Under the pieces are notes generated by a model. That model ran no database searches and had not been told where the DNA came from. It was given only the letters and a program-made list of their open reading frames with translations. From the IMG/VR virus record IMGVR_UViG_3300035497_000275, positions 64,001 to 123,954 of that record: a stretch of DNA of 59,954 nt. One strand, 5' to 3'. Of this stretch, positions 29,794-40,303 are shown piece after piece; within the stretch, counting starts at the first letter, position 1; the number at the start of each line of letters is the position of its first letter. Origin of the DNA: a virus (taxonomy: Duplodnaviria > Heunggongvirae > Uroviricota > Caudoviricetes). The translations under genes were made by a program, and so were the position numbers.

Positions 29794-31074
29794 ATGGCAG
29801 ATAGAACTTTGAATACTGTTTTTAAACTTCGTGGTGACTCTCTGGCTAACCTGAGTGCAAAGAACGCTGTTTATGCTGACCGTGAACCTATTATCGTTAT
29901 TGTTCCCGCTGATTCCAACAGTGGTTTGAATGAGCCTGCTGTTCTGCTGAAGATCGGTGACGGTAAGACCGCTTTTAATAGCCTTGGTTATGTGAGTGCT
30001 ATTGCCGGGGACGTTCCTGCATGGGCGAAGGAAGCCACTAAGCCTACTTATACCGCAACTGAAATTAGTGGCCTGTCTGACTTTATCTCTGGCGAGATCA
30101 AGGATACCGACACTCAGTACAAGTTGGAGCAGGATGAAACCGATAAGCACACCCTGAAGTTCTTCACCAAGGGCAAGAACGACACTGAGTATACTTTGGC
30201 TGCTACCATTACTACCGCCGATACCGTGTATGATGACACTACTCTGGCTGGCAAGGTTAGCGATAACGCAGATGCTATTGACGCACTGGTGAAGTTGGTT
30301 GGCGATACCGCCGTTGCAACTCAGATTTCTAACGCTATTACTGCGCTGAAGCTGGCTGAAACTTATGAGGCCAAGGGTGCGGCTGCTTCTGCTTTGACTG
30401 AGGCTAAGAGTTATGCTGACGGCAAGGATGCAGATATTAAGGCTGCAAAGGATGCCGCAGATGCCGCTCAGAGTGATGTTGACGCTTTGGAAAAGACTGT
30501 CGGTACTGTTGACGAGGGCAAGACCGTTGTTGAAATGATCAAGGCCGCTCAGACTGCCGCTACCTATGATGATACCGATGTGAAGGCAAGCATCAAGTCT
30601 AATGCTGACGCTATTGCTACTCTGAATGGTGACGATACTGGTAAGTCTGCCCGTGATATTTCTGCCGAGGAAGTGGCAAAGATCGTTGCTGGTGCTGATG
30701 AAAGTCTGGATACCCTGAAGGAGATTGCTGACTGGATTAGTTCTCACAAGGATGACGCATCCGCAATGAATTCCGCTATCACAGCTTTGGAGGCTATTGT
30801 TGCTGGTATCGGCGGTGACGGCGAGAAGGCTACTGTGGTTGCCTATGTCACTGACGCTATTGACGCACTGAAGATCGGTGATTATGCAAAGGCCGCTGAC
30901 CTGACTGCTTTGGCTGAGCGTGTTACCACTTTGGAGGGCAAGGCTACTAACGTCAAGAAGTCTAACACCAACGGCAACATTCAGGTTGATGGTACTGATG
31001 TGACTGTTTACACTCTGCCTGACACTGTTCTTGATTCTGGTGATACCTTCGTCTTTGACGGTGGCAACGCCTAA
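29794..31074 (+). CDS. Tail fibre stalk protein with Mtd_N/hyaluronidase-like N-terminal domain and long Ala-rich coiled coil
   Basis: LRGDSLANL...LKIGDGKTAFNSLGY; strong codon bias. Confidence 0.68.
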   Translation: MADRTLNTVFKLRGDSLANLSAKNAVYADREPIIVIVPADSNSGLNEPAVLLKIGDGKTAFNSLGYVSAIAGDVPAWAKEATKPTYTATEISGLSDFISGEIKDTDTQYKLEQDETDKHTLKFFTKGKNDTEYTLAATITTADTVYDDTTLAGKVSDNADAIDALVKLVGDTAVATQISNAITALKLAETYEAKGAAASALTEAKSYADGKDADIKAAKDAADAAQSDVDALEKTVGTVDEGKTVVEMIKAAQTAATYDDTDVKASIKSNADAIATLNGDDTGKSARDISAEEVAKIVAGADESLDTLKEIADWISSHKDDASAMNSAITALEAIVAGIGGDGEKATVVAYVTDAIDALKIGDYAKAADLTALAERVTTLEGKATNVKKSNTNGNIQVDGTDVTVYTLPDTVLDSGDTFVFDGGNA

Positions 31075-31094
31075 TCGAAAAACCTAAACAGATT

Positions 31095-31132
31095 ATAGGG
31101 GGAGGTATCAATCATACCTTCCCCTATTCTTT
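31095..31132 (+). terminator. Terminator-like hairpin after the fibre gene
   Basis: ATAGGGGGAGGTAT-caatc-ATACCTTCCCCTAT followed by TCTTTT. Confidence 0.68.
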
Positions 31133-31199
31133 TCATTAGGGATTTATTTACCGATTCAAGTCGATAAATCATTCTAAAAGAAAGAGAGTGTGATATAGA

Positions 31200-31670
31200 A
31201 TGGCTGAACGAAAAATTTCTGCTTCCTTTCAACAGCGGCGTGATACTGCGGCTAATTGGGAAAAGAAAAACCCCATTCTTTTAGATGGCGAACCGATTAC
31301 AGTGGTAACGAATTCTGGTGCTGTGCGACATAAAACTGGTGATGGTACAAAGACTTACAAGCAACTCCCCTTTGACGATGAGCCATTGTATAACGCACTT
31401 GCTGGAAAATGTGATGCCAGTCAGTCAATTGATGTTACGTTGTTAGCAAGTGGTTGGACAAATGGGGAACAAACGGTTTCTGTCAGCGGCGTTACCGCAA
31501 AGCAAAATGGTATTGCTGGTTTGCCGCAAAGTTTTTCTGACGCAGAGTATGAAGCGATTGCTGCCGCTGAATTGTATGTGGCGGCGCAAACTGATGGTTC
31601 TGTCACATTCGCCTGTAATGGGGATGTGCCGCAGATTGATGTTCCCGCTGTCATCATCCTACTTGGTTAA
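31200..31670 (+). CDS. Short fibre subunit: Mtd_N-like domain plus C-terminal beta domain
   Basis: QQRRDTAANWEKKNPILLDGE...KTGDGTKTYKQLPF; the C-terminal domain is paralogous to that of 31694-32095. Confidence 0.65.
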   Translation: MAERKISASFQQRRDTAANWEKKNPILLDGEPITVVTNSGAVRHKTGDGTKTYKQLPFDDEPLYNALAGKCDASQSIDVTLLASGWTNGEQTVSVSGVTAKQNGIAGLPQSFSDAEYEAIAAAELYVAAQTDGSVTFACNGDVPQIDVPAVIILLG

Positions 31671-31693
31671 TCCGAGAAAGGGTGGTGTTTATT

Positions 31694-32095
31694 TTGAGTA
31701 AAACTACGAACTATGGCTTATTTTTGTACGATGATGATACAAAATTTGCTGAATGGCGTGAAAAGATGGATGGTTCAAACGATTCCAACATGGTCAAGAT
31801 CGACAACGCTTTGGCAGAAAAAGCTATCCATAGCAAAACTGTAACAACCACCTTATATGCAAGTAAGTGGTCTGGTTTGGATTCGCCTTATACGCAGGAG
31901 ATCAGCGTAGATGGCCTTGGCGCAGTTCAGAATGGGCAGATTTCATGCGCTCATGGGGCAACCTTTGAACAGCGACAGGCGGCACGAGAAGCTGAACTGG
32001 CGGTTACAGGGCAATCGGAAGGCAAGTTGGTGATTGCTGCGGATGGGGAAATGCCTGAATTGGACATTCCCGTTGTGATCATTTTGTTGGATTAA
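31694..32095 (+). CDS. Short fibre subunit
   Basis: TTG start with SD; SKTTNYGL...NMVKIDNAL N-terminus; C-terminal domain shared with the upstream gene. Confidence 0.62.
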   Translation: MSKTTNYGLFLYDDDTKFAEWREKMDGSNDSNMVKIDNALAEKAIHSKTVTTTLYASKWSGLDSPYTQEISVDGLGAVQNGQISCAHGATFEQRQAAREAELAVTGQSEGKLVIAADGEMPELDIPVVIILLD

Positions 32096-32107
32096 AGGAG
32101 GTATTAT

Positions 32108-34222
32108 ATGCCAATTATTTCTAATTTCCCAACTGGAGGCGGTAGTGGCGGCGGTGGCATCCCACTGGCTGCCGTGTCTGATATCAAGACACTGACTGCT
32201 TCTGGCAAGGTTTATATTAAATATACTGATCCCGAAGATACCATTGCGGGTGACGTGACACTGGCAACATGGGCTGGTACGTTGCTGGTTCGGAAAGCTG
32301 GCTCCATGCCGAATAGCAGACGGGATGGCACAGTGATTTTGGATAATAAGGAGCGGAACAAGTATTCTAACACTTATTTCTGCGACAGCGGTTTGAGTGA
32401 TGGAACTGTTTACTACTACAAGTTCTTCCCCTATTCCAGCACAAACACCTATACAGACGATACGGCGGATGAATTTACCGCTACTCCAAATCCCGTAAAA
32501 ACTGGTGATGTGTCCTCTATCAAAGTGGCGGCGCAGTTGAATGGTCGTGTTCAATTGAACTGGACTGATCCTGCCGCTACGGTTATCAGTGATGGCATCA
32601 CATTAGCAACATGGGCAAGCACTAAGGTCGTTTACAAAACTGGCAGTTACCCCACCTCCCCGGAGGACGGTACGCTGGTCGTGAATAGCACAACAAGAAA
32701 TGCTTATTCAAGTAGTCCATTGACGGTCACTGGCCTGACCAATGGGACTACTTATTATTTTGCTTTCTTCCCCATTTCTACGGAAGGCACAGTAAATACA
32801 AACACGAGTAGTAGAATAACTGCCGTGCCAAATCGGGTGAAAATCACCACTGAGCCGAGTCAGTCCGGGACGTTGACCTATAACGGTTCGGCGCAATCTC
32901 CGTCTTGGAGCAATTATAGCACGACTCAGTTGACTATTGGTGGTACTACATCTGGTACAAATGCTGGTGATTATAGTGCGACCTTTACGCCGAAGGATGA
33001 TTACTGCTGGTCTGACGGTTCAACAACCGCAAAGACAATTACTTGGAAGATCGCAAAGAAAACTTTGACAAAGCCTACTTTGAGTAAATCAGAGATTACA
33101 CTGAATACTTCGACTACCAGCACTACATTCACAGTAACACGGGATGGTGATGGTGTAATTGAGGCGGAGTCCAGTGATACCAGCGTTGCTACGGTTTCTG
33201 TGTCTGGTACTACCGTGACTGTGAAAAGTGTGAATAGCAATAATGGTTCTGCGACTATTACCATTACGGTCAAGGAAGGTACAAACTATACGGCTTATAC
33301 CGGGACAGATGCGACTTGTTCCGTGACTGCTTCGTTCATTTCTGCTACATTGAACGATAATACATGGGCTGAAATTAAGGGCGTTTCTGATGCTGGTACA
33401 GGTGCAAACTATTGGTCTGTTGGTGACGCAAAGCAAATCACAATTAATGGTACTGTTGGTACTACGACATTTAGTAATTTTACTACATATGCTTTTATTA
33501 TTGGTTTCAATCACAACTCTGCAAAAGAAGGCAATAATCGTATCCACTTCCAGATTGGTAAAACTGCCGTAGGCGGAACAGATATTTGTTTGTGCGATAG
33601 TGCTTACAATACCAACGCTGGTTATTCTGGTACGAAGGCATTTGCAATTAACCACTGGGGTACGAATTCTTCTCCTTATAATACAAACTATGGTGGTTGG
33701 TCTGCTTGTGATATGCGTTACGACATTCTTGGTAGTACCGATACACAACCAAGTGTGTATGGTAAGACTAAGACAACTGCTGCCGTTGGTTATGATGCAA
33801 GTGATACGACTGCTACAAATCCTGTTGCGAATACTTTGATGGCTGCATTGCCCTCTGATTTACGAGCAGTCATGAAATCTTGTACCAAGTATTCTGATAA
33901 CAAGGGCGGCGGTTCTGATACCTCATCCTATGTTACCGCAACAAAGGACTATTTATGGTTGCTATCTGAATTTGAAGTTCAAGGTACAAGAACTTATGCA
34001 AATAGTGCGGAACAGAATTATCAAGCGCAGTATGCTTATTATAGTGCTGGTAATTCCAAGATTAAATATAAACATGATGGCACAACAACAGCAGCGGACT
34101 GGTGGCTGCGCTCTGTCGCCTCGTCCTTCACGAACTACTTCTGCCGTGTGTCGACGGACGGGTCGGCGGACAGCGGCAGCTCTCGCAACTCGCGTGGGGT
34201 CGCCCCGGCCTTCTGCGTCTAA
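32108..34222 (+). CDS. DGR target: receptor-binding/adhesin-like fibre protein (2 FN3-like, 2 Ig-like, C-terminal DUF6273/C-type-lectin-like domain with VR)
   Basis: Two repeated TDP...LATW...DGT...GL..GT.YY units, a Big_2-like SSDTSVATV segment, C-terminal WWLRS...F..V...G......S...GVAPAFCV signature. Confidence 0.88.
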   Translation: MPIISNFPTGGGSGGGGIPLAAVSDIKTLTASGKVYIKYTDPEDTIAGDVTLATWAGTLLVRKAGSMPNSRRDGTVILDNKERNKYSNTYFCDSGLSDGTVYYYKFFPYSSTNTYTDDTADEFTATPNPVKTGDVSSIKVAAQLNGRVQLNWTDPAATVISDGITLATWASTKVVYKTGSYPTSPEDGTLVVNSTTRNAYSSSPLTVTGLTNGTTYYFAFFPISTEGTVNTNTSSRITAVPNRVKITTEPSQSGTLTYNGSAQSPSWSNYSTTQLTIGGTTSGTNAGDYSATFTPKDDYCWSDGSTTAKTITWKIAKKTLTKPTLSKSEITLNTSTTSTTFTVTRDGDGVIEAESSDTSVATVSVSGTTVTVKSVNSNNGSATITITVKEGTNYTAYTGTDATCSVTASFISATLNDNTWAEIKGVSDAGTGANYWSVGDAKQITINGTVGTTTFSNFTTYAFIIGFNHNSAKEGNNRIHFQIGKTAVGGTDICLCDSAYNTNAGYSGTKAFAINHWGTNSSPYNTNYGGWSACDMRYDILGSTDTQPSVYGKTKTTAAVGYDASDTTATNPVANTLMAALPSDLRAVMKSCTKYSDNKGGGSDTSSYVTATKDYLWLLSEFEVQGTRTYANSAEQNYQAQYAYYSAGNSKIKYKHDGTTTAADWWLRSVASSFTNYFCRVSTDGSADSGSSRNSRGVAPAFCV
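34092..34208 (+). repeat. DGR variable repeat (VR)
   Basis: 117 nt at the 3' end of the target gene; 97/117 identical to 34963-35079; GC-rich relative to the flanks. Confidence 0.95.
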
Positions 34223-34230
34223 GCTAATCA

Positions 34231-34286
34231 GTTCATCATCCTTATCTTGTCCAAGGCAAACGCCGGGACAGATAAGGGTGATGGAC
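34231..34286 (+). promoter_or_regulatory. Long inverted repeat downstream of the VR (candidate homing hairpin/cruciform and/or terminator)
   Basis: GTTCATCATCCTTATCTTGTCC pairs with GGACAGATAAGGGTGATGGAC (two G-T, one bulge); the loop holds a GGC-aaac-GCC mini-hairpin. Confidence 0.72.
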
Positions 34287-34374
34287 GCTACCCTACTATA
34301 CTGTATTTTATCTTTGTATATGAGGGAAAGGGGAAAATCGCAAATATATTCTGGTAATCAATTGGAGGTAATTA

Positions 34375-34926
34375 ATGGCAGTTTATGCGTCTAAAAGAAG
34401 TGAATCTAAAATGGAGTTTATAAACGTTGCTCAACAGTTAGCAGTCTATACTTTGGATCAAGTTAAGAAATTTCCAAAGTCTCGCAATTTTAGATATATT
34501 GATCGTATTACGGATTTAGCGTTTGAAATTCATGAAGATGTAACAAGAGCGAATTCGTATTATGTTTATAAAGATATGATGGAATTTGAATTCATCCAAA
34601 GAGAAGTATTGTTATTCAAAGCGAAATCAGCAATATTTACAATGAGCAGTTTATTAACCATTACATTTTCTTATGTTAAAAAAGGAAATAATTTTCTTGG
34701 AGATATGAAGAAAATGTCGAATATGTTTAAAGAATGGGCAAGGCTTCTGAATTATGAAACAGCATTGATAAAAGGTATAATTGAATCTGACAAGAAAAGG
34801 TATAAACGCTATAACAAACCCGGCACTTCAAAGAAGTTGGAGAAAATTTTGAACCAACAATTTGAAGATGAAAACGAAATTGTTTTACCAGAAAGCACTT
34901 TTGATATAGAAGATACTGCGGAATAA
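34375..34926 (+). CDS. avd: Accessory variability determinant (Avd-like) with acidic C-terminal tail
   Basis: MAVYASKRSESKMEF start, four-helix-bundle pattern, W...I...DKKR end; lies between VR and TR. Confidence 0.82.
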   Translation: MAVYASKRSESKMEFINVAQQLAVYTLDQVKKFPKSRNFRYIDRITDLAFEIHEDVTRANSYYVYKDMMEFEFIQREVLLFKAKSAIFTMSSLLTITFSYVKKGNNFLGDMKKMSNMFKEWARLLNYETALIKGIIESDKKRYKRYNKPGTSKKLEKILNQQFEDENEIVLPESTFDIEDTAE

Positions 34927-34940
34927 CCGCAGTTATTTTT

Positions 34941-35425
34941 AGGTTACATCCTGATAAAGACCCAGCGTACTGGTGGCTGCGCTCTGTCTACTCGTCCAAC
35001 ACGAACCTCTTCTGCATTGTGTATACGGACGGGTCGGCGTACGGCACCTACTCTCGCACCTCGTCTGGGGTCGCCCCGGATTCTTGAAACTGTTTGCGGT
35101 GCATCAAAGTATAGATTTTAGTTCGCAAACTTGGATTCGTCTGAGTAACCTTTCTTATGATTGGTGAAAACTATATCCATTATTCAGAAGGAGGATGTAT
35201 GCCTTGGTTCCTGTTGAACGACATACCAAAAATACCTTTTTGATACTTGCATCTGGACGCTGCTTGCATGGTTTGATGTGACTTTACTGATTTGGATAAT
35301 AAGGTCGAATGATCGAATACCTTATCCCGTCAAATTTCATAGGTGCAATGTTAAGTAGCTTAGTAAATCAGTATCGGAAATTGTCAACGAATATGGTTTT
35401 GATGCGTAGACATATTCGCCAATGA
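34941..35425 (+). ncRNA. Putative DGR template RNA (TR plus structured spacer)
   Basis: AGGTTACATCCT (34941-52) pairs with AGGATGTATGCCT (35192-204); further stems at 35092-98/35124-30, 35259-65/35353-59 and 35299-305/35319-25. Boundaries are approximate. Confidence 0.6.
34963..35079 (+). repeat. DGR template-repeat-position copy (TR), atypically depleted of AAY codons
   Basis: Non-coding, between avd and RT, with a 3' end (GGATTCTTGA) different from the VR end (GGCCTTCTGCG). Confidence 0.9.
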
Positions 35426-35482
35426 ATGATCAGGCTATACAGAAAGGAGAGGTTTTATACCTCAGTTTGGAAATATTTTAGC

Positions 35483-36898
35483 ATGACAAGTGAAGAACGT
35501 AGACAAAAGAGATATGAACGGCGAAAGCAAAAGCGTGAAGAAAAGGCAAAAGCAATTTGTGATAAAACACTTGCTGAAGTTTACACATATGAAAATATGT
35601 TGAAAGATGGTGACAAGTGTTGTTTAGGCGTTGGTTGGAAAACTTCTACGATTAATTTTGAATCAACATTAATTACACAAGTTGATAGTTTGCAAGAAGA
35701 TGTTCTGAACGGAACATATAAGTTTAAAGGCTTTAAACACTTTAAGACAATTGAACATGGTAAGGAGCGTGACATTAACGCCCTTGTAATTCAAGATAGA
35801 TGTGTTCAAAAGTGTTATTGTGATGAAGTTATGACAGATGCCTATTCAAGATCATTTATCTATGATAATAGTGCAAGTTTGCCAGACAAAGGAATGGATA
35901 TGACTTTAAAACGTCTGGAGCAATTTTTGCATGAGCATTATAGAAAATATGGTTTGGAAGGAGGCATTTTCCAATTTGACTTTCATGGATATTTTGCTTC
36001 AATCCCATTAGATAAAGCAAAAGCAAGATTGAGAAAACATATTCATGACCCTGATTTGCAGAAATTGGGCTGTCAATTGATTGACGATTTCGTTCATTTA
36101 GGCGGAGTTGAACAAGATACCGATAATCCACACGGAGTTGGTTTAGGTAGTCAAGTATCACAAAATATTGCATTAGATTTTGCAAGTCCAATTGATCATT
36201 ATATCAAGGATAAACTTGGTATTCGTGGATACGCACGATATATGGATGATGGATATGTGATAAGTGATTCTCTTGAATTTTTGTACGAATTAAAAAGTTT
36301 CTTATATGACTTTGCTAAAGAATTAGGAATCGAAATGAACGAAAAGAAATGTATTGTTACGCCATTTAAGAATCATAGTTTCAAATTCTTAAAAATGCGG
36401 ATTCGTCTTGAGCCAAACGGCAAAGTAGTTATTAAAATGAGCAGAAATAGCATTAAAGCTATTCGGCGCAAATTAAGAATATTTCGTGGATGGGTCGATA
36501 CTGGTAAAATGAATTCTGAAGATGTAGTTACTTCTTATCAATCTTGGAGGTCACACGCTGGTAGATGTAACAGTTATAGAACCGTTCATTCAATGGATTT
36601 GTATTTTGTAAGTTTGTTTGAGAAAGAATTAGCAGAGCGTGATAAAAAGTTTAAATGCACTTTAGATGCAAGATGGAACTATGAAATCGGATGGTTTTAT
36701 TTTACATCAAAGAAAGAATGGGATGCAAAAATGAAAGAATTAGATGATACCAGATATCAGCGTTATATGGATGGTTTTATTCCATTGGTTGATCGTTGGG
36801 ATTATCGAATGAGTCATAGAAGCAAAGACGCTATGACATTTTCAATGTTGCGTGAAATTCGTGAAAGTTATAATGATAAGGAGGATGACAATGTATAG
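35483..36898 (+). CDS. DGR reverse transcriptase
   Basis: GKERDI, SFIYDNSAS, FDFHGYFASI, GVGLGSQVSQ, YARYMDD (YMDD at 36239-36250), FKFLK. Start taken at MTSEERR; the ORF is open from 35426. Confidence 0.95.
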   Translation: MTSEERRQKRYERRKQKREEKAKAICDKTLAEVYTYENMLKDGDKCCLGVGWKTSTINFESTLITQVDSLQEDVLNGTYKFKGFKHFKTIEHGKERDINALVIQDRCVQKCYCDEVMTDAYSRSFIYDNSASLPDKGMDMTLKRLEQFLHEHYRKYGLEGGIFQFDFHGYFASIPLDKAKARLRKHIHDPDLQKLGCQLIDDFVHLGGVEQDTDNPHGVGLGSQVSQNIALDFASPIDHYIKDKLGIRGYARYMDDGYVISDSLEFLYELKSFLYDFAKELGIEMNEKKCIVTPFKNHSFKFLKMRIRLEPNGKVVIKMSRNSIKAIRRKLRIFRGWVDTGKMNSEDVVTSYQSWRSHAGRCNSYRTVHSMDLYFVSLFEKELAERDKKFKCTLDARWNYEIGWFYFTSKKEWDAKMKELDDTRYQRYMDGFIPLVDRWDYRMSHRSKDAMTFSMLREIRESYNDKEDDNV

Positions 36899-37151
36899 AT
36901 TAATTTCTAATGGGAATGTCATTGGTGATTATGAAAAGGTTGTATTTACAAAGAAAAATCAGTCAAATGGCTGTTTTGTAGAGTGCAGCCAAGGTGAGGC
37001 CGATGGTGTTGTTGCTGGTGGAAAGGTTTATGCAATTACGAATTCTGACGATTACAAGGATTATGAACAAGTTGCTTTACTTCAATTAGATGGTGAAGTG
37101 GAGCGTTCTGCTGAACTTGATTATATCCGTGCTATGTCTGGATTGGTGTAA
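36891..37151 (+). CDS. Hypothetical protein (86 aa)
   Basis: SD AAGGAGG before ATG 36891, which overlaps the RT stop. Confidence 0.6.
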   Translation: MYRLISNGNVIGDYEKVVFTKKNQSNGCFVECSQGEADGVVAGGKVYAITNSDDYKDYEQVALLQLDGEVERSAELDYIRAMSGLV

Positions 37152-37163
37152 GGAGGTCTTGGA

Positions 37164-37775
37164 ATGACTGTACTGGAAATGATTCAAACTTATTTTCCTG
37201 CTGTTTGGAGCAAAGAACAGGTAAATGAGTTACTGACGAAGAATAAGATCACTGTGACGGATTATCTAACGGTGTTCCCGATTACAGAGGATAATCCTGT
37301 AACGGATGAAATGCGGACACTGTTTCGTACCAGTAAGTTGAATGAACTGCGGACGAATTGCAATGCCGCCATTGAAAGCGGTGTCGATGTGTCTACTTCC
37401 AACAGTGGTAAGGAAACAGAGCATTTTTCTCTGGATAGTTACGATCAGAATAACATCACCAATATGTTTTATTCTGTGATGGCTGGTATTGAGGAATATC
37501 CTTATCATGCGGATGGTAAGGAATGTACAACTTATACCAGAGCGGATATTATTGCGCTTTATGTAGCGGCTCAGACTGCTATCACCTATCATACGACTTA
37601 TAACAATATGCTTCGTGCATTGGTGAGTCGTACTGAAGATGTGGAGGAATTGGCTGCTATCACCTACGGGATGGATTTGCCTGAAGATTTGAGTGCTGTG
37701 ATGCAGACGAATATTCAGACGGCGCAAGAGCAGATTCAAAAGATTCTTGAAACTTTGGGCAATGCCGCAAATTAA
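37164..37775 (+). CDS. DUF4376-like protein (putative fibre assembly chaperone)
   Basis: CNAAIESGVDV...EHFSLDSYDQNNI...YHADGKEC...YHTTY pattern. Confidence 0.65.
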   Translation: MTVLEMIQTYFPAVWSKEQVNELLTKNKITVTDYLTVFPITEDNPVTDEMRTLFRTSKLNELRTNCNAAIESGVDVSTSNSGKETEHFSLDSYDQNNITNMFYSVMAGIEEYPYHADGKECTTYTRADIIALYVAAQTAITYHTTYNNMLRALVSRTEDVEELAAITYGMDLPEDLSAVMQTNIQTAQEQIQKILETLGNAAN

Positions 37776-37800
37776 ATAGTGAATGAAGGAGATTGTATAA

Positions 37801-38217
37801 ATGAAGCAATACAACACTTATATTGTAACCAATCGTTTTAAGGGCGTTTCTATTTGTGGTGATTTGAATTTGCCATATGGAACGGAATGTACAGTGAATG
37901 ATGGATTTATCATCTGTGATCGTGGTGTCGTGTGTGCTGTTACCAGTCAGAACGCATACGATTATTTTTCACAGAACGATGATGGCAACGCAAAGGAGCG
38001 TGGCAAACTGGTTCACAGCATCCGTAAAACATTGGAGAGATATACGAAATTTAATCCCAAAAAGAAGCAGGAAGTGTGGGATAAAATTTGGAATGATAAG
38101 ATTTGCCTGAAATACAAGCGTGAGGACTATGAAGATCATTGGCTGTGGAATTACGATTTCTACAACGCTGAATTGTATGATCTCCGATATATTGCGAAAC
38201 TTGTAGGCGCAAAGTAA
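37801..38217 (+). CDS. Hypothetical protein
   Basis: 138 aa, SD AAGGAG, Trp-rich C-terminus. Confidence 0.6.
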   Translation: MKQYNTYIVTNRFKGVSICGDLNLPYGTECTVNDGFIICDRGVVCAVTSQNAYDYFSQNDDGNAKERGKLVHSIRKTLERYTKFNPKKKQEVWDKIWNDKICLKYKREDYEDHWLWNYDFYNAELYDLRYIAKLVGAK

Positions 38218-38645
38218 TGAAACGAAAATTAAAATATTTGCTTAAAGAGATAGTGCTGCTGTTAATCGGCGGCACTATCTATTTTTGCATTGAAGTGTTA
38301 TGGCGTGGATATAGCCATATCTCAATGTTTTTTGTAGGCGGATTCTGCTTTGTTCTGATTGGTTTGATTAATGAGATTTTTCCTTGGGAATTAGGTCTTG
38401 TACAACAATCGTTAATCGGAGCGTTACTTACTACATTCGTTGAATTGATTTCAGGATTGATTCTCAATGTTTGGTTAGGACTTGGAATTTGGGATTATTC
38501 AAATTTGCCTTTTAATTTCATGGGGCAGATATGCTTACCATTTTTCTTTGCATGGATCGCTTTATCCTGCGTTGCGATCATTTTAGATGATTATTTGAGA
38601 TATTGGTTATTTCACGAGGAAAAGCCACATTATCAACTGGTCTAA
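38217..38645 (+). CDS. Small multi-pass membrane protein (putative ABC-permease/CmpB-like family)
   Basis: GGTIYFCIEVLWRGYSHISMFFVGG, VELISG, IWDYSNLPFNFMGQICL; about four hydrophobic segments. Confidence 0.7.
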   Translation: MKRKLKYLLKEIVLLLIGGTIYFCIEVLWRGYSHISMFFVGGFCFVLIGLINEIFPWELGLVQQSLIGALLTTFVELISGLILNVWLGLGIWDYSNLPFNFMGQICLPFFFAWIALSCVAIILDDYLRYWLFHEEKPHYQLV

Positions 38646-38659
38646 GGAGGTGTTGAATT

Positions 38660-40303
38660 TTGGCTTTAACTGGTACAACAAACGAACAAAAGATTTGGAA
38701 CTACTTCAAATCAAAAGGATTGAATAATTACGGAATCGCAGGAATTATGGGCAATCTGTACGCTGAAAGCGGATTGATGCCAAATAATCTGCAAAACACA
38801 GGAAATAAGAAATTAGGCATGACAGATGATGAATATGTCAAGGCTGTTGATTATGGCACTTATACAAACTTCGTGAAAGATTCGCAAGGTTTTGGTATTG
38901 CCCAATGGACTTATTGGAGTCGTAAGCAAAATCTTTATAATTACGCAAAATCAAAATCTAAGTCAATTGGAGATTTGGAAATGCAGCTTGATTTTCTTTA
39001 CAGTGAATTAAGCAGCGGCTATTCATCTGTGCTTGCAACATTGAAGTCCGCAACTTCTGTGTTACAGGCTTCTAATGCTGTTCTGTTGAATTTTGAAAGG
39101 CCAGCAGATCAAAGCACATCAGTTCAAAATAAACGGGCAAGTTACGGACAGTCTTATTATGACAAGTTCGCCACGTCCACACAAACTGTAACAACTGCCG
39201 TTGTACAGACAGCGAATGGAGGAAAAATGACTAATACTGAATTAATTAAGAAACTGCAAAATATTGTAGATAATTATAAAACTCTCTATGTGATGGGATG
39301 TTTTGGCGCACCGCTGACTGGAAGTAATGTTTCTCGTTATTGCACTAATCATGTGTATAATAAGCAGTCTGCCCGTACCGCTATGATCAAGGCCGCTGCG
39401 AACCAGAATCCGCCTGTTTATGGTTTTGACTGTGTAAATATGATCAAGGGAATTTTGTGGGGCTGGACTGGTGACGCTTCAAAGACTTATGGCGGCGCAC
39501 AATATGCAATCAATGGTGTCCCGGATATTAGTGCTGATGGAATGATCACAAAATGCTTGAATGTGTCCACGGACTTTTCAAACATCGTTCCCGGCGAAGC
39601 TGTGTGGATGACAGGTCATATCGGTGTTTATATTGGGGATGGCAAGGTCATTGAGTGTTCTCCCGCTTTTAAGAATTGTGTTCAAGTTACTGCTTGCTGG
39701 AATGTGAAGAAGATTTCTGGCATGAATGGTCGTACTTGGACAAAGCACGGTAAACTCCCTTATATTACATACACCAGCACAACAACTACTTCTACTGCTG
39801 CGACAGCGACACAGAGTACGGCAACCGCTGTTTCCGGGCAATATAAGGTCAACACCACATCACAGCCGTTAAATTGTCGTAGTACGCCGAATGGTACGAT
39901 CATCGGGCAATTTAAAAAAGGGGCAATCGTTACCGCAACACAGCAGAGTGGAAACTGGATGTATGTTTCTGATGGCACACTCACTGGTTGGGCTTCTAAG
40001 GATTATCTTTTGCTGATTGACGCAAAGCAAGCAATCACTACCCTTGTCAGCAAAGGCATTATCAATACGCCTGATTATTGGACTCAGCATTATAAGGATT
40101 TGAATAGTCTGGATCGGCTTCTGGTCATTATGGCCTCTACTACAACAAAGACTACTGCCGGGACTTCTATCACAACTGCGGAACAGGCACTTGATCTGAT
40201 GACGAAAAAGGGTCTGATTAATTCCCCGGATTATTGGAAGGCAAATTATAGCAAGGTGAACTATCTTGGAACATTATTGATCAAATTCGCAAATTCTTTA
40301 TAA
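38660..40303 (+). CDS. Multidomain endolysin: phage lysozyme-like + Cys/His peptidase (CHAP/NlpC-like) + SH3 + two C-terminal repeats
   Basis: GIMGNLYAESG/GIAQWT/FERPA; FDCVNMIKG and GHIGVYIG; LNCRSTP...GWASKDYL; 2x KG.IN.PDYW. Confidence 0.85.
   Translation: MALTGTTNEQKIWNYFKSKGLNNYGIAGIMGNLYAESGLMPNNLQNTGNKKLGMTDDEYVKAVDYGTYTNFVKDSQGFGIAQWTYWSRKQNLYNYAKSKSKSIGDLEMQLDFLYSELSSGYSSVLATLKSATSVLQASNAVLLNFERPADQSTSVQNKRASYGQSYYDKFATSTQTVTTAVVQTANGGKMTNTELIKKLQNIVDNYKTLYVMGCFGAPLTGSNVSRYCTNHVYNKQSARTAMIKAAANQNPPVYGFDCVNMIKGILWGWTGDASKTYGGAQYAINGVPDISADGMITKCLNVSTDFSNIVPGEAVWMTGHIGVYIGDGKVIECSPAFKNCVQVTACWNVKKISGMNGRTWTKHGKLPYITYTSTTTTSTAATATQSTATAVSGQYKVNTTSQPLNCRSTPNGTIIGQFKKGAIVTATQQSGNWMYVSDGTLTGWASKDYLLLIDAKQAITTLVSKGIINTPDYWTQHYKDLNSLDRLLVIMASTTTKTTAGTSITTAEQALDLMTKKGLINSPDYWKANYSKVNYLGTLLIKFANSL

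Follow-up and report, generated by a model that had tools for sequence, protein, structure and literature searches.

The DGR of Bordetella phage BPP-1 (mtd-avd-TR-brt) is ordered target, avd, template repeat (TR) and reverse transcriptase (RT); it has a lectin-like target gene whose 3′ end holds the variable repeat (VR), an AAY-rich template, a GC-rich element and hairpin after the VR, and an IMH*-type flank on the TR. The BPP-1 TR was reportedly turned into a recipient by Doulatov et al. 2004 through replacement of IMH* with IMH. Transfer in BPP-1 is described as unidirectional, with its direction dictated by IMH (PMC5703328). In engineered E. coli DGRs coupled to recombineering, cDNA is written into the TR, and this 'TR self-mutagenesis' removes adenines stepwise and narrows the sequence space (DGRec, bioRxiv 10.1101/2025.03.24.644984; continuous mutagenesis, bioRxiv 10.64898/2026.07.21.739853). 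These systems are synthetic and plasmid-borne with over-expressed CspRecT, and their authors contrast them with natural DGRs. No report of adenine erosion in a natural TR was found in our limited literature search, which returned TR self-mutagenesis only in engineered systems. One TR serves two DUF6273/C-lectin targets in the gut phages nd4 and nd12 (PMC10743442). Wu et al. 2018 put TR/VR differences other than A-to-N down to infidelity of the RT, errors of integration or independent mutation (PMC5758913).

We analysed a DGR in a 59,954-nt window (the whole stretch of DNA under study) of a 124-kb Caudoviricetes phage genome. It shares with BPP-1 the gene order, the place of the VR, the GC-rich element and hairpin after the VR and the IMH*-type TR flank, the AAY-rich template being found here in its relatives. 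Unlike in BPP-1, the TR itself bears the signature of A-mutagenesis, and unlike in the construct of Doulatov et al. 2004, the flank of this TR is unchanged. Entry of mutagenised cDNA into the TR, as in the engineered DGRs, is what we propose here, but for a wild phage genome whose sole candidate helper is a Sak4-like protein. The locus has in common with nd4 and nd12 a single TR for two targets of that type, a gut-type Firmicutes phage setting and homologous RTs (∼32–33% identity), whereas the cassette and its second target are 81 kb apart, and TR adenines vary between its relatives. As in the cases of Wu et al. 2018, the VR is unlike the TR at non-adenine TR positions; in contrast to the attribution made there, relatives show the TR to be the changed partner, and the non-A mismatches to the first VR number 13.

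Organisation of the DGR cassette

The locus is a complete DGR with a DUF6273 target, Avd, TR and intact RT. Its parts are as follows.

32108–34222, plus strand: target gene 1 (704 aa); VR1 lies in its C-terminal DUF6273 domain, which is C-type-lectin-like (Pfam DUF6273, E 2.6e-13; phrog_37900, E 1.7e-156)
34092–34208, plus strand: VR1, variable repeat, forming a 117-nt repeat with the TR; 17/26 AAY adenine positions substituted relative to the AAY state of the clade
34234–34283, plus strand: hairpin 3′ of VR1 (DNA fold −24.2 kcal/mol, z −5.07)
34375–34926, plus strand: avd-position gene, 183 aa (phrog_3206 'Avd protein of DGR', E 1.4e-8)
34963–35079, plus strand: TR locus, eroded; 14/26 AAY adenines lost, to T in 8 cases, C in 4 and G in 2, with flanks orthologous to the TR flanks of relatives
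35080–35425, plus strand: TR-RT spacer, presumably the structured 3′ portion of the DGR RNA, with the IMH*-like start GGATTCTTGAAACTGTTTGC; blocks conserved across relatives
35426–36898, plus strand: DGR RT; 490 aa if counted from the first ATG, 471 aa with the start at 35483 used in public calls (Pfam RVT_1; phrog_1423, E 4e-76)

The RT has the motifs GLGSQVSQ and YMDD in common with its relatives and is the sole reverse transcriptase found in the 124-kb genome. Among phages, its best homologues belong to nd12 and to Roseburia and Faecalibacterium phages, all known to carry DGRs, and the criterion of a DGR-clade RT with intact catalytic motifs is fulfilled. The NCBIfam search with the RT returned no DGR-specific model, and group II, Drt3a and retron models matched only below threshold. 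An Avd gene adjacent to the TR, another criterion of a DGR, is provided by the phrog_3206 match; the same protein matched NCBIfam DivGenRetAVD only at E 7e-4, under the model cut-off, and had no Pfam match. The TR lies between the avd-position gene and the RT gene. A 64-aa GTG ORF at 34973–35167 was rejected as a gene, being merely an open frame that overlaps the conserved noncoding TR and spacer. No A-biased changes were seen in the spacer.

Two DUF6273 targets, of 704 aa and 259 aa, satisfy the criterion that a TR/VR pair should place its VR 3′-terminally in a lectin-like target gene; DUF6273 is CLec-like (PMC10743442). The 3′ flanks of VR and TR part directly after GGGGTCGCCCCGG. The hairpin downstream of VR1 is a candidate target-recognition stem-loop and may also be a terminator. 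Its equivalents are kept 3′ of the VRs of two relatives (L004 and L020) and 3′ of the second VR of this phage (z −4.57), while DNA folding gave no hairpin 3′ of the TR (z −0.33). The elements that set direction in a DGR are therefore placed as expected, a GC-rich element and hairpin being present 3′ of the VR and absent 3′ of the TR. Of the annealing proteins sought in the genome, only an AAA_24/Sak4-like one is encoded (phrog_124, E 4e-24); members of the RecT, Erf and Rad52 families were not found. GC skew switches at ∼45 kb.

Comparison of the template repeat with its variable repeats and with related templates

The repeat search recovered VR1 and the TR-position copy as a 117-nt direct repeat of 83% identity. 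The two differ at 20 of 117 ungapped positions, where the TR base is A in 7 cases, T in 8, C in 4 and G in 1. The mismatches are confined to 12 codons in the frame of the target gene and fall at codon positions 1–2 throughout, with the sole exception of 35024 (T) against 34153 (G). These counts had been given in the original prediction from the window alone and were reproduced in every number, and its translated repeat strings match our recomputed translations. That prediction had called for a search for a third, AAY-rich copy. A third copy does exist, at G000:C1:16783–16909 on the minus strand, 81 kb away and beyond the window, but it is a second variable repeat (VR2) and not a pristine TR. 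It was the only match when blastn was run with VR and TR, and no AAY-rich copy was found in the whole 124-kb genome. Mismatches at TR adenines make up 7/20 for VR1 and 3/13 for VR2, so the rule that a DGR's VR differs from its TR only or almost only at TR adenines is broken here. When the AAY state of the relatives stands in for the template, VR2 differs from it at adenines alone, and VR1 does so with a single exception.

About a dozen distinct TR sequences were obtained from relatives with RTs 72–78% identical to that of the window. They carry AAY at the same 13 codons, some of them with a different codon at one or two of these sites. The ancestor that had been inferred from the window, with Asn codons at 13 sites, thus corresponds, codon for codon, to the TRs that all recovered relatives actually carry. 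Judged by sequence, the TR-position copy therefore descends from an AAY-rich template by mutagenesis. The relatives do not share the window TR; the prediction would have been refuted had all of them carried it with VRs differing from it only at adenines. The TR-type flanks ascribed to this copy are conserved among them. They also meet the adenine-only rule directly: their VR-TR differences lie at adenines in 14/14 to 21/23 cases, 20/20 for VR2 of G001, with looser ratios in L014 (16/24) and L027 (14/18). An ancestral AAA at site 7, considered for the third-position mismatch, was rejected; AAT with one ordinary T>G in VR1 is simpler, TR and VR2 both reading TAT, and relatives show 0–2 non-A differences. 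Megablast of the cassette against GenBank phages gave no match, and the metagenome contig scan with the RT gave 3 loci only, one of them useful (L014). The closest relative available has ∼78% RT identity, so the event is undated.

All 14 changes of the TR from the AAY state fall within the 26 AAY adenines of its 117 positions (P = 2e-11). Among the 91 non-AAY positions, 90 equal VR1, and every one that can be compared with VR2 equals VR2. This backbone differs from the TRs of relatives at 19–29 positions, and VR1 and VR2 carry the window state at all but one of them. Since TR and VRs share a backbone unlike that of relatives, homing has been active in this lineage; and since only AAY adenines changed on a backbone shared with the VRs, the change in the TR was adenine-specific and not drift. 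The load of the TR (14/26, 54%; T > C > G) falls inside the span of 48–81% (T > G > C) seen in single VR alleles of relatives. Only 12/26 programmable adenines are left, and the DGR criterion that TR DNA stays unaltered through diversification is not met.

VR1 retains A at 4 positions eroded in the TR and VR2 at 5. The new base of the TR is found at only 2 eroded positions in VR1 and only 3 in VR2, which we judged to be near chance level. Because both VRs keep A where the TR has lost it, neither was made from the present TR, and both predate the TR change. The claim that the current VR cannot derive from the current TR is borne out in this way. By site, the TR differs from VR1 at 12/13 and from VR2 at 10/12.

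Partial, A-only erosion of the TR was detected in four other lineages of the clade, with 1, 2, 3 and 6 adenines lost. The TR of L043/L048/L051 has 6 adenines fewer than that of L042, clustered in the 3′ half (6/9 vs 0/21; Fisher ∼1.4e-4), and the L042 and L043 flanks are 6–8% divergent. L022 has 2 adenines fewer than siblings from which it differs at only 2–3 of ∼7200 other bases (Poisson 8e-4), L045/L050 has lost 1, and L014 has 3 fewer than the AAY state of the clade. Pooled over the first three of these groups, 9/9 sibling TR differences are at adenines. L053 combines the VR of one backbone with the TR of another, giving 10 non-A mismatches.

Five contigs that JGI and Logan assembled from different samples (L005, L006, L007, L009 and L010) agree with the TR and its flanks at every position (177/177). 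Contigs with this TR are 99.8–100% identical to the window over shared stretches and represent one near-clonal population; some may share the same reads. K-mers of 25 or more taken from the TR region are absent from the rest of the genome, VR1 and VR2 included. Logan contig L008 ends inside the TR at window position 35050. The window and four further contigs (L005, L006, L007 and L009), all of one clonal population, share an identical VR1, and consensus contigs can hide minor alleles; in a sister lineage, 4 samples gave 4 VR alleles. Freshwater metagenome run X1, which holds a small share of words from 34300–35500, was the sole sequencing run matched to that interval, and none was matched to 30000–39999. 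Run X1 yielded on read assembly a 151-nt contig 98% identical to 35206–35356 and a 36-nt fragment, with nothing over TR or VR.

Explanations for the altered template

We lean, with moderate confidence, to the reading that A-mutagenised cDNA made from the phage's own TR RNA replaced the TR itself. Homing of cDNA onto the TR had been one of four options in the original prediction, and it fits best, as only AAY adenines changed and both VRs are older. VR-to-TR gene conversion, in which homologous recombination copied into the TR, and so archived, an already diversified VR allele of a sibling genome replicating alongside in one cell, is unlikely but deserves the most attention among the others. 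The TR does read like a VR, with Tyr at 5/13 sites, cassettes do recombine between related phages (L053), and RT-independent TR/VR recombination was seen to some extent by the DGRec authors. The many site differences from VR1 and VR2 exclude the VRs of this genome as donor, and no later change was possible in either VR at the non-A positions of the TR. Sites 1 and 13 were both converted although they lie just 5 nt inside the 5′ edge and 13 nt inside the 3′ edge of the TR/VR1 homology, leaving only that much outer homology for crossovers, and VR2 has no homology at site 1. Conversion is therefore disfavoured, yet a donor VR allele from a co-infecting sibling genome is not formally excluded. The same short distances count against an assembly or consensus artefact, by which the true TR would be AAY-rich and the assembled copy a mis-threaded VR variant: the two outermost sites adjoin TR-specific flank, and neighbouring variable sites are at most ∼20 nt apart. 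DGR repeats are a known assembly hazard, the supporting contigs come without backing reads from one near-clonal population, and L008 breaks inside the TR. The identical TR and flanks nonetheless recur in at least two assembly pipelines and several samples, no 25-mer is shared with VR1, VR2 or the rest of the genome, and an AAY-rich path should have prevailed in assembly, because reads of the true TR would match the whole genome in depth. We regard such an artefact as improbable.

About equally improbable is a pristine AAY-rich TR in a co-infecting relative or host prophage that worked in trans on the TR and both VRs, with this TR locus treated as a target. DGR components have been documented to act in trans (PMC5758913), and related phages were found together in the same sample series. 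No such copy is present in the 124-kb genome, however, which has a single RT; copying from relatives would transfer their 19–29 non-A backbone differences; and homing onto the TR locus would still be needed. Two patterns of the lineage backbone with N at the variable positions gave 0 matches in IMG/VR and GTDB genomes (the phage's own record was possibly outside the scope), and the pristine TR that had been suggested to lie elsewhere was thus not recovered. Little commends the view that ordinary point mutations built up in a TR that was decaying or relaxed and that selection tolerated only those at AAY positions. Because scaffold changes would pass into the VRs and be selected out, filtering could in principle leave an A-only pattern, and the L042/L043 flanks do differ. 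With continued homing, though, the VRs should have the new bases of the TR, which are absent, and with homing stopped all 117 positions would be neutral, yet changes stand at 14/26 against at most 1/91 (P = 2e-11). The excess of TR changes in L022 and the clustering in L043-type TRs speak against it as well. Least credible of all is an RT of altered specificity that mutates T, C and G besides A. Non-A-to-N differences do occur in 23% of surveyed DGRs, up to 11 per target (PMC5758913). Here, leaving aside 35024, all 'non-A' mismatches coincide with an A in the relatives' TRs, none of the 91 constant positions has been touched, and the RT motifs are the same as in relatives that mutate adenines only. 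Altered specificity had already been deemed the less likely option on account of the constant codons, and it is not needed.

Inferred route and meaning of the proposed template self-replacement

For replacement of the TR by its own cDNA, the starting point would have been a canonical phage DGR with two DUF6273 targets, avd, RT and an ancestral TR bearing AAY at 13 codons. A cDNA made from the TR RNA, with about half of its AAY adenines substituted, would have been incorporated at the TR locus and not at a VR, in one full-length event or a few, and would have left a VR-like, Tyr-rich template with the 12/26 programmable adenines of today. BPP-1 cDNA starts in IMH* and ends in avd sequence (PMC12875486); if this is likewise the case here, TR-derived cDNA is homologous to the TR locus beyond the repeat. 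We infer that the cDNA probably anneals directly to the TR locus, homologous on both flanks. Annealing to a lagging-strand template may be helped by the Sak4-like protein; the lagging-strand argument is inference only and is based on the GC-skew switch. Direct annealing would bypass the rule of IMH and hairpin that normally makes transfer one-way. A point against self-replacement is that the TR lacks the known target features of BPP-1, having an IMH*-type flank and no hairpin, and a non-canonical integration route must therefore be assumed. Orthology of the TR to the AAY-rich TRs of relatives, and the same sequence in several assemblies, are established as far as sequence comparison can do so. 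Self-replacement, to which we give the moderate confidence stated above, rests on assembled contigs without read-level alleles.

More tentatively, and with somewhat less than even confidence, we suggest that the DGRs of this clade, and by extension natural DGRs, recurrently write A-mutagenised cDNA into the TR by ssDNA annealing at the lagging-strand template, possibly aided by phage annealing proteins like the Sak4-like one found here. The safeguard of IMH and hairpin would then be leaky, and the process an intrinsic, irreversible ratchet that narrows an element's capacity to diversify and in the end abolishes it. If true, it would be the wild counterpart of engineered 'TR self-mutagenesis' and would explain part of the catalogued 'non-A-to-N' differences; surveys requiring A-only mismatches would drop such cases or misread them as RT infidelity. 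The TRs of near-identical genomes allow a simple census of changes at adenines versus other bases. The TR erosion that limits engineered DGRs would have a natural precedent, and natural counter-measures would be open to study.

It seems that such DGRs can wear away their own template in nature. By arithmetic, the amino-acid repertoire of the present phage falls from ∼15^13 to ∼4^8 × 15^2, a ∼10^8-fold drop, and the element itself cannot reverse the loss of adenines. With a natural TR bearing the mutation signature, and smaller losses in four related lineages, the one-way rule would leak in the wild and DGRs would have a built-in ageing.

Cassette architecture and the second target

A repeat search of the window identified an ungapped 117-nt direct repeat of 83% identity, with one copy at 34092-34208 (VR1, the variable repeat) and the other at 34963-35079 (TR, the template repeat). 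The recount gave 20 mismatches, at which the TR base is A in 7 cases, T in 8, C in 4 and G in 1. They are spread over 12 target-frame codons and fall at codon positions 1 and 2, with the sole exception of 35024 versus 34153. These counts are identical to those of the original prediction. The features of the locus are as follows.

Features of the DGR locus
32108-34222: target gene 1, a 704-aa ORF with VR1 at its end
34375-34926: gene in the avd position, 183 aa, phrog_3206 'Avd protein of DGR' (E 1.4e-8)
34963-35079: TR copy, plus strand, between the 183-aa ORF and the 490-aa ORF
35426-36898: RT gene, 490 aa, RVT_1; phrog_1423 (E 4e-76)

The locus is a complete DGR cassette in the order target, avd, TR, RT, as indicated by the Avd match, by an RT whose GLGSQVSQ and YMDD motifs are intact, and by a strong hairpin after VR1 (z -5.07) that is absent after the TR copy (z -0.33). 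The RT is undamaged, and the three SNPs of locus L011 are all synonymous. Among phage proteins it comes closest to the RTs carried by Roseburia, Faecalibacterium and nd12-type phages. The virus record, 123,954 bp with an estimated completeness of 97%, contains one RT only. A small gene at 36852-37151 (86 aa in public gene calls) overlaps the 3' end of the RT gene; its position is kept in all relatives and it has no family match. The TR-RT spacer, with blocks kept across all relatives, is probably a structured part of the DGR RNA, judging from sequence conservation. Part of it (35206-35356) is ~98% identical to a 151-nt contig from the freshwater metagenome X1, in which nearly nothing else of the locus is covered.

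A blastn search of the whole genome (G000:C1) detected one extra repeat copy outside the window, 81 kb off, at G000:C1:16783-16909 on the minus strand (L015:4784-4910). A 259-aa DUF6273 gene (E 6.3e-17) terminates with this copy; the gene adjoins one for a polynucleotide kinase / RNA ligase, and the copy is followed by a hairpin of its own (z -4.57). A pristine template was thereby ruled out for this copy, which is a second variable repeat (VR2). The complete 133-kb relative G001 has an orthologous second target with a repeat at C1:47995-48106, and all 20 mismatches between this repeat and its TR are at TR adenines, so the DGR of this clade serves two targets.

Adenine-specific change in the template repeat

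TR loci were collected from about a dozen lineages with RTs 72-78% identical to the window RT, using RT homologues in IMG/VR and public assemblies plus a scan for the conserved TR 3' flank. The original prediction had inferred an ancestral template with Asn codons (AAY) at 13 sites. The relatives bear this out: all their TRs carry AAT or AAC at these codons, with a different codon at one or two sites in a few of them. In translation these templates give A N W W L R S V N .. N T N N F C N V N T D G S. N N N N S. N S N G V A P. Their VRs differ from the TRs at 14-24 positions, 89-100% of them TR adenines, with looser agreement in L014 (16/24) and L027 (14/18). The TR flanks conserved in the relatives (5' GGTTACATCCTG.., 3' GGATTCTTGAAACTGTTTGC.., and the spacer blocks) are unchanged in the window. 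Given the shared flanks and the AAY codons at the same 13 sites in the relatives, the copy at 34963-35079 is, by sequence comparison, the ortholog of their TRs. It reads TAC TAC AAC AAC CTC ATT TAT TAC GGC ACC TAC ACC TCT at these sites, so that 14 of the 26 AAY adenines are lost (to T in 8 cases, C in 4 and G in 2).

All 14 changes fall within these 26 of the 117 positions (P = 2e-11). At the other 91 positions TR equals VR1 at 90, and it equals VR2 at every comparable position. Drift of the TR in a dead element would predict changes at those 91 positions as well. Compared with the relatives' TRs, the window backbone has 19-29 differences, and with a single exception the VRs have the window base there as well. 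TR and VRs thus evolved in concert, and homing worked in the window lineage after its split from the relatives. The TR load of 54%, with all three substitution types and T the most frequent, is comparable to what an individual VR allele shows in the relatives (load 48-81%; T 45%, G 32%, C 23%).

If the TR had eroded slowly while the element was active, the VRs would hold its new bases, which is not the case. An A is retained at four eroded positions in VR1 (35008, 35043, 35049 and 35059) and at five in VR2. The new TR base is common to VR1 at 2 positions and to VR2 at 3, which we judge to be about chance level. With A retained and few new bases shared, both VRs predate the TR change and neither was made from the present TR, as had been argued for VR1. 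CGT (Arg) occurs in 5 of 15 aligned VR sequences at site 13 (34193-34195) and in 7 of 15 at site 6 (34145-34147), L019-L022 being counted separately; the eroded TR has TCT and ATT at these sites. The recurrence of CGT suggests convergent selection on VRs that the TR copy may have escaped.

The eroded TR could in principle be an assembly artefact, a possibility we regard as improbable. The exact RT protein was found on ten contigs, and among the seven listed, five cover the entire TR (Logan SRR11792166; JGI 3300035498, 3300043104, 3300035495 and 3300043077). The TR and both flanks are identical in these five (177/177), which come from two different assembly pipelines, and an identical VR1 is present in four of them. 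Sites 1 and 13 lie 5 nt and 13 nt from TR-specific sequence, and the longest exact TR/VR match is 22 nt. No k-mer of at least 25 from the TR region recurs in the rest of the genome, so assembled alleles cannot have been joined into a graph chimera at usual k. The contigs carrying the TR are 99.8-100% identical to the window over shared stretches; they therefore represent one population, and some may rest on the same reads, which leaves the artefact some room. This evidence is from assembled contigs only, and the mutagenised TR of the original prediction is supported without read-level confirmation. Contig L008 (Logan SRR11792608) starts at window position 35050, inside the TR between sites 11 and 12; this could reflect a graph branch, meaning TR heterogeneity in that sample, or merely low coverage.

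Template changes in sibling lineages

Comparison of L022 with L019-L021, which have the same RT protein, showed the TR changes AAT to ATT and AAC to ACC at L022:2518 and L022:2533. Only 2-3 differences were found in ~7.2 kb outside VR and TR (Poisson 8e-4); the coverage of the L022 contig is low, about 4x by its name. In the IMG/VR contigs L043, L048 and L051, compared with L042, six TR adenine changes are clustered at sites 8-12 (AGT AAC AAC AAC .. AAT to GGT GAC TCC TAC .. TAT), and the remaining 21 adenines are unchanged. These sites are in the 3' half of the TR, where cDNA synthesis starts. The adjacent VR keeps A at 4 of the six changed positions. Two contigs from different samples, L045 and L050, have AAT to TAT at TR site 2 relative to L041, L047, L053 and L057; the L050 VR mismatches are all at TR adenines (15/15), so a lightly eroded TR is still usable. 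Over these three comparisons all nine TR differences are at adenines, the pattern that the proposed check on relatives' TR loci was to look for. The window is the extreme case of TR adenine erosion in the clade.

In the TR of L014 (L014:1966-2083), a locus without a close sibling, sites 1 and 2 read TCT and CAT against AAT in every other TR, and the L014 VR differs from this TR at 8 non-A positions. The VR of L053 (IMGVR_UViG_3300006204_000312) is the same sequence as that of L043/L051 and has one type of TR backbone; the TR beside it is of another type, which leaves 10 non-A mismatches. The pattern resembles the outcome of an exchange inside the cassette between related phages, or a chimeric contig. 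The sister lineage L019-L022 has four VR alleles in four samples; all contigs of the window lineage share one VR1. This uniformity would fit an absence of homing after the TR event, which consensus contigs of one population cannot prove.

Proposed overwriting of the template, its route and consequences

We lean towards the view that A-mutagenised cDNA made from the TR was incorporated straight into the TR locus, as in the homing of cDNA onto the TR offered in the original prediction; this step is inferred, not shown. cDNA copied from TR RNA would be inserted there while bypassing the requirement for IMH and hairpin established in BPP-1 (PMC3240598, PMC5703328). BPP-1 cDNA synthesis begins within IMH* and stops in avd sequence (PMC12875486), and cDNA of this type would share homology with the TR locus past the repeat on both sides. 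In engineered DGRs, integration of cDNA by a ssDNA-annealing protein also mutates the TR and progressively erases its adenines, and 'TR self-mutagenesis' even serves as a read-out (bioRxiv 10.1101/2025.03.24.644984; 10.64898/2026.07.21.739853). The phage encodes a 379-aa Sak4-like ssDNA annealing protein at G000:C1:5035-6174, minus strand (L058:1126-2265; Pfam AAA_24 89 bits; phrog_124 E 4e-24), adjoining an HNH endonuclease gene; a search of the phage genome found no RecT, Erf or Rad52 family member. The cumulative GC skew of G000:C1 has its minimum at ~44-45 kb and its maximum at ~105 kb, where the coding strand also switches. VR2 (minus, 16.8 kb) and VR1 and TR (plus, 98-99 kb) are all directed away from the 45-kb switch. 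If this switch were the replication origin, which is a hypothesis only, the lagging-strand template would be the strand that pairs with the cDNA at each of these loci, in agreement with the orientation effect of a reconstituted DGR (PMC12875486).

A VR of the same genome was rejected as donor: 12 of 13 sites distinguish the TR from VR1, and 10 of 12 distinguish it from VR2. Conversion of the TR by a VR allele of a sibling genome remains possible. It is disfavoured because sites 1 and 13 were both converted and merely 5 and 13 nt of TR/VR homology lie beyond them, very little for homologous recombination. The suggestion of a pristine template acting in trans found no support: VR2 was the only further copy in the genome, and no AAY-rich copy with the window backbone was found in the genome, IMG/VR or GTDB genomes. 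Incorporation of the element's own cDNA thus remains our preferred route.

By gene content the locus is a BPP-1-type phage DGR with two DUF6273 targets, and it works like one. In its present state it departs from the textbook DGR in two respects: the TR/VR differences are not restricted to A, and the TR has been altered. Wu et al. found non-A-to-N differences in 23% of DGRs, at most 11 per target, and explained them by RT infidelity or independent mutation (PMC5758913). The window has 13, and here, according to the relatives, the template was changed and not the copy. The 13 AAY codons allow about 15^13 protein variants by our own arithmetic, and the present TR (8 one-A codons, 2 intact AAC, 3 fixed) about 4^8 x 15^2, a loss of repertoire of around eight orders of magnitude. 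In the full texts searched, TR self-mutagenesis was described only for engineered systems. Doulatov et al. in 2004 reportedly also described it for a BPP-1 construct with IMH* swapped for IMH. We infer, with somewhat better than even confidence in the route, that in this natural DGR the mutagenic product has replaced the element's own template, and that the relatives show partial forms of this change. The next full-length homing would reset VR1 and VR2 to the Tyr-rich backbone of the TR.
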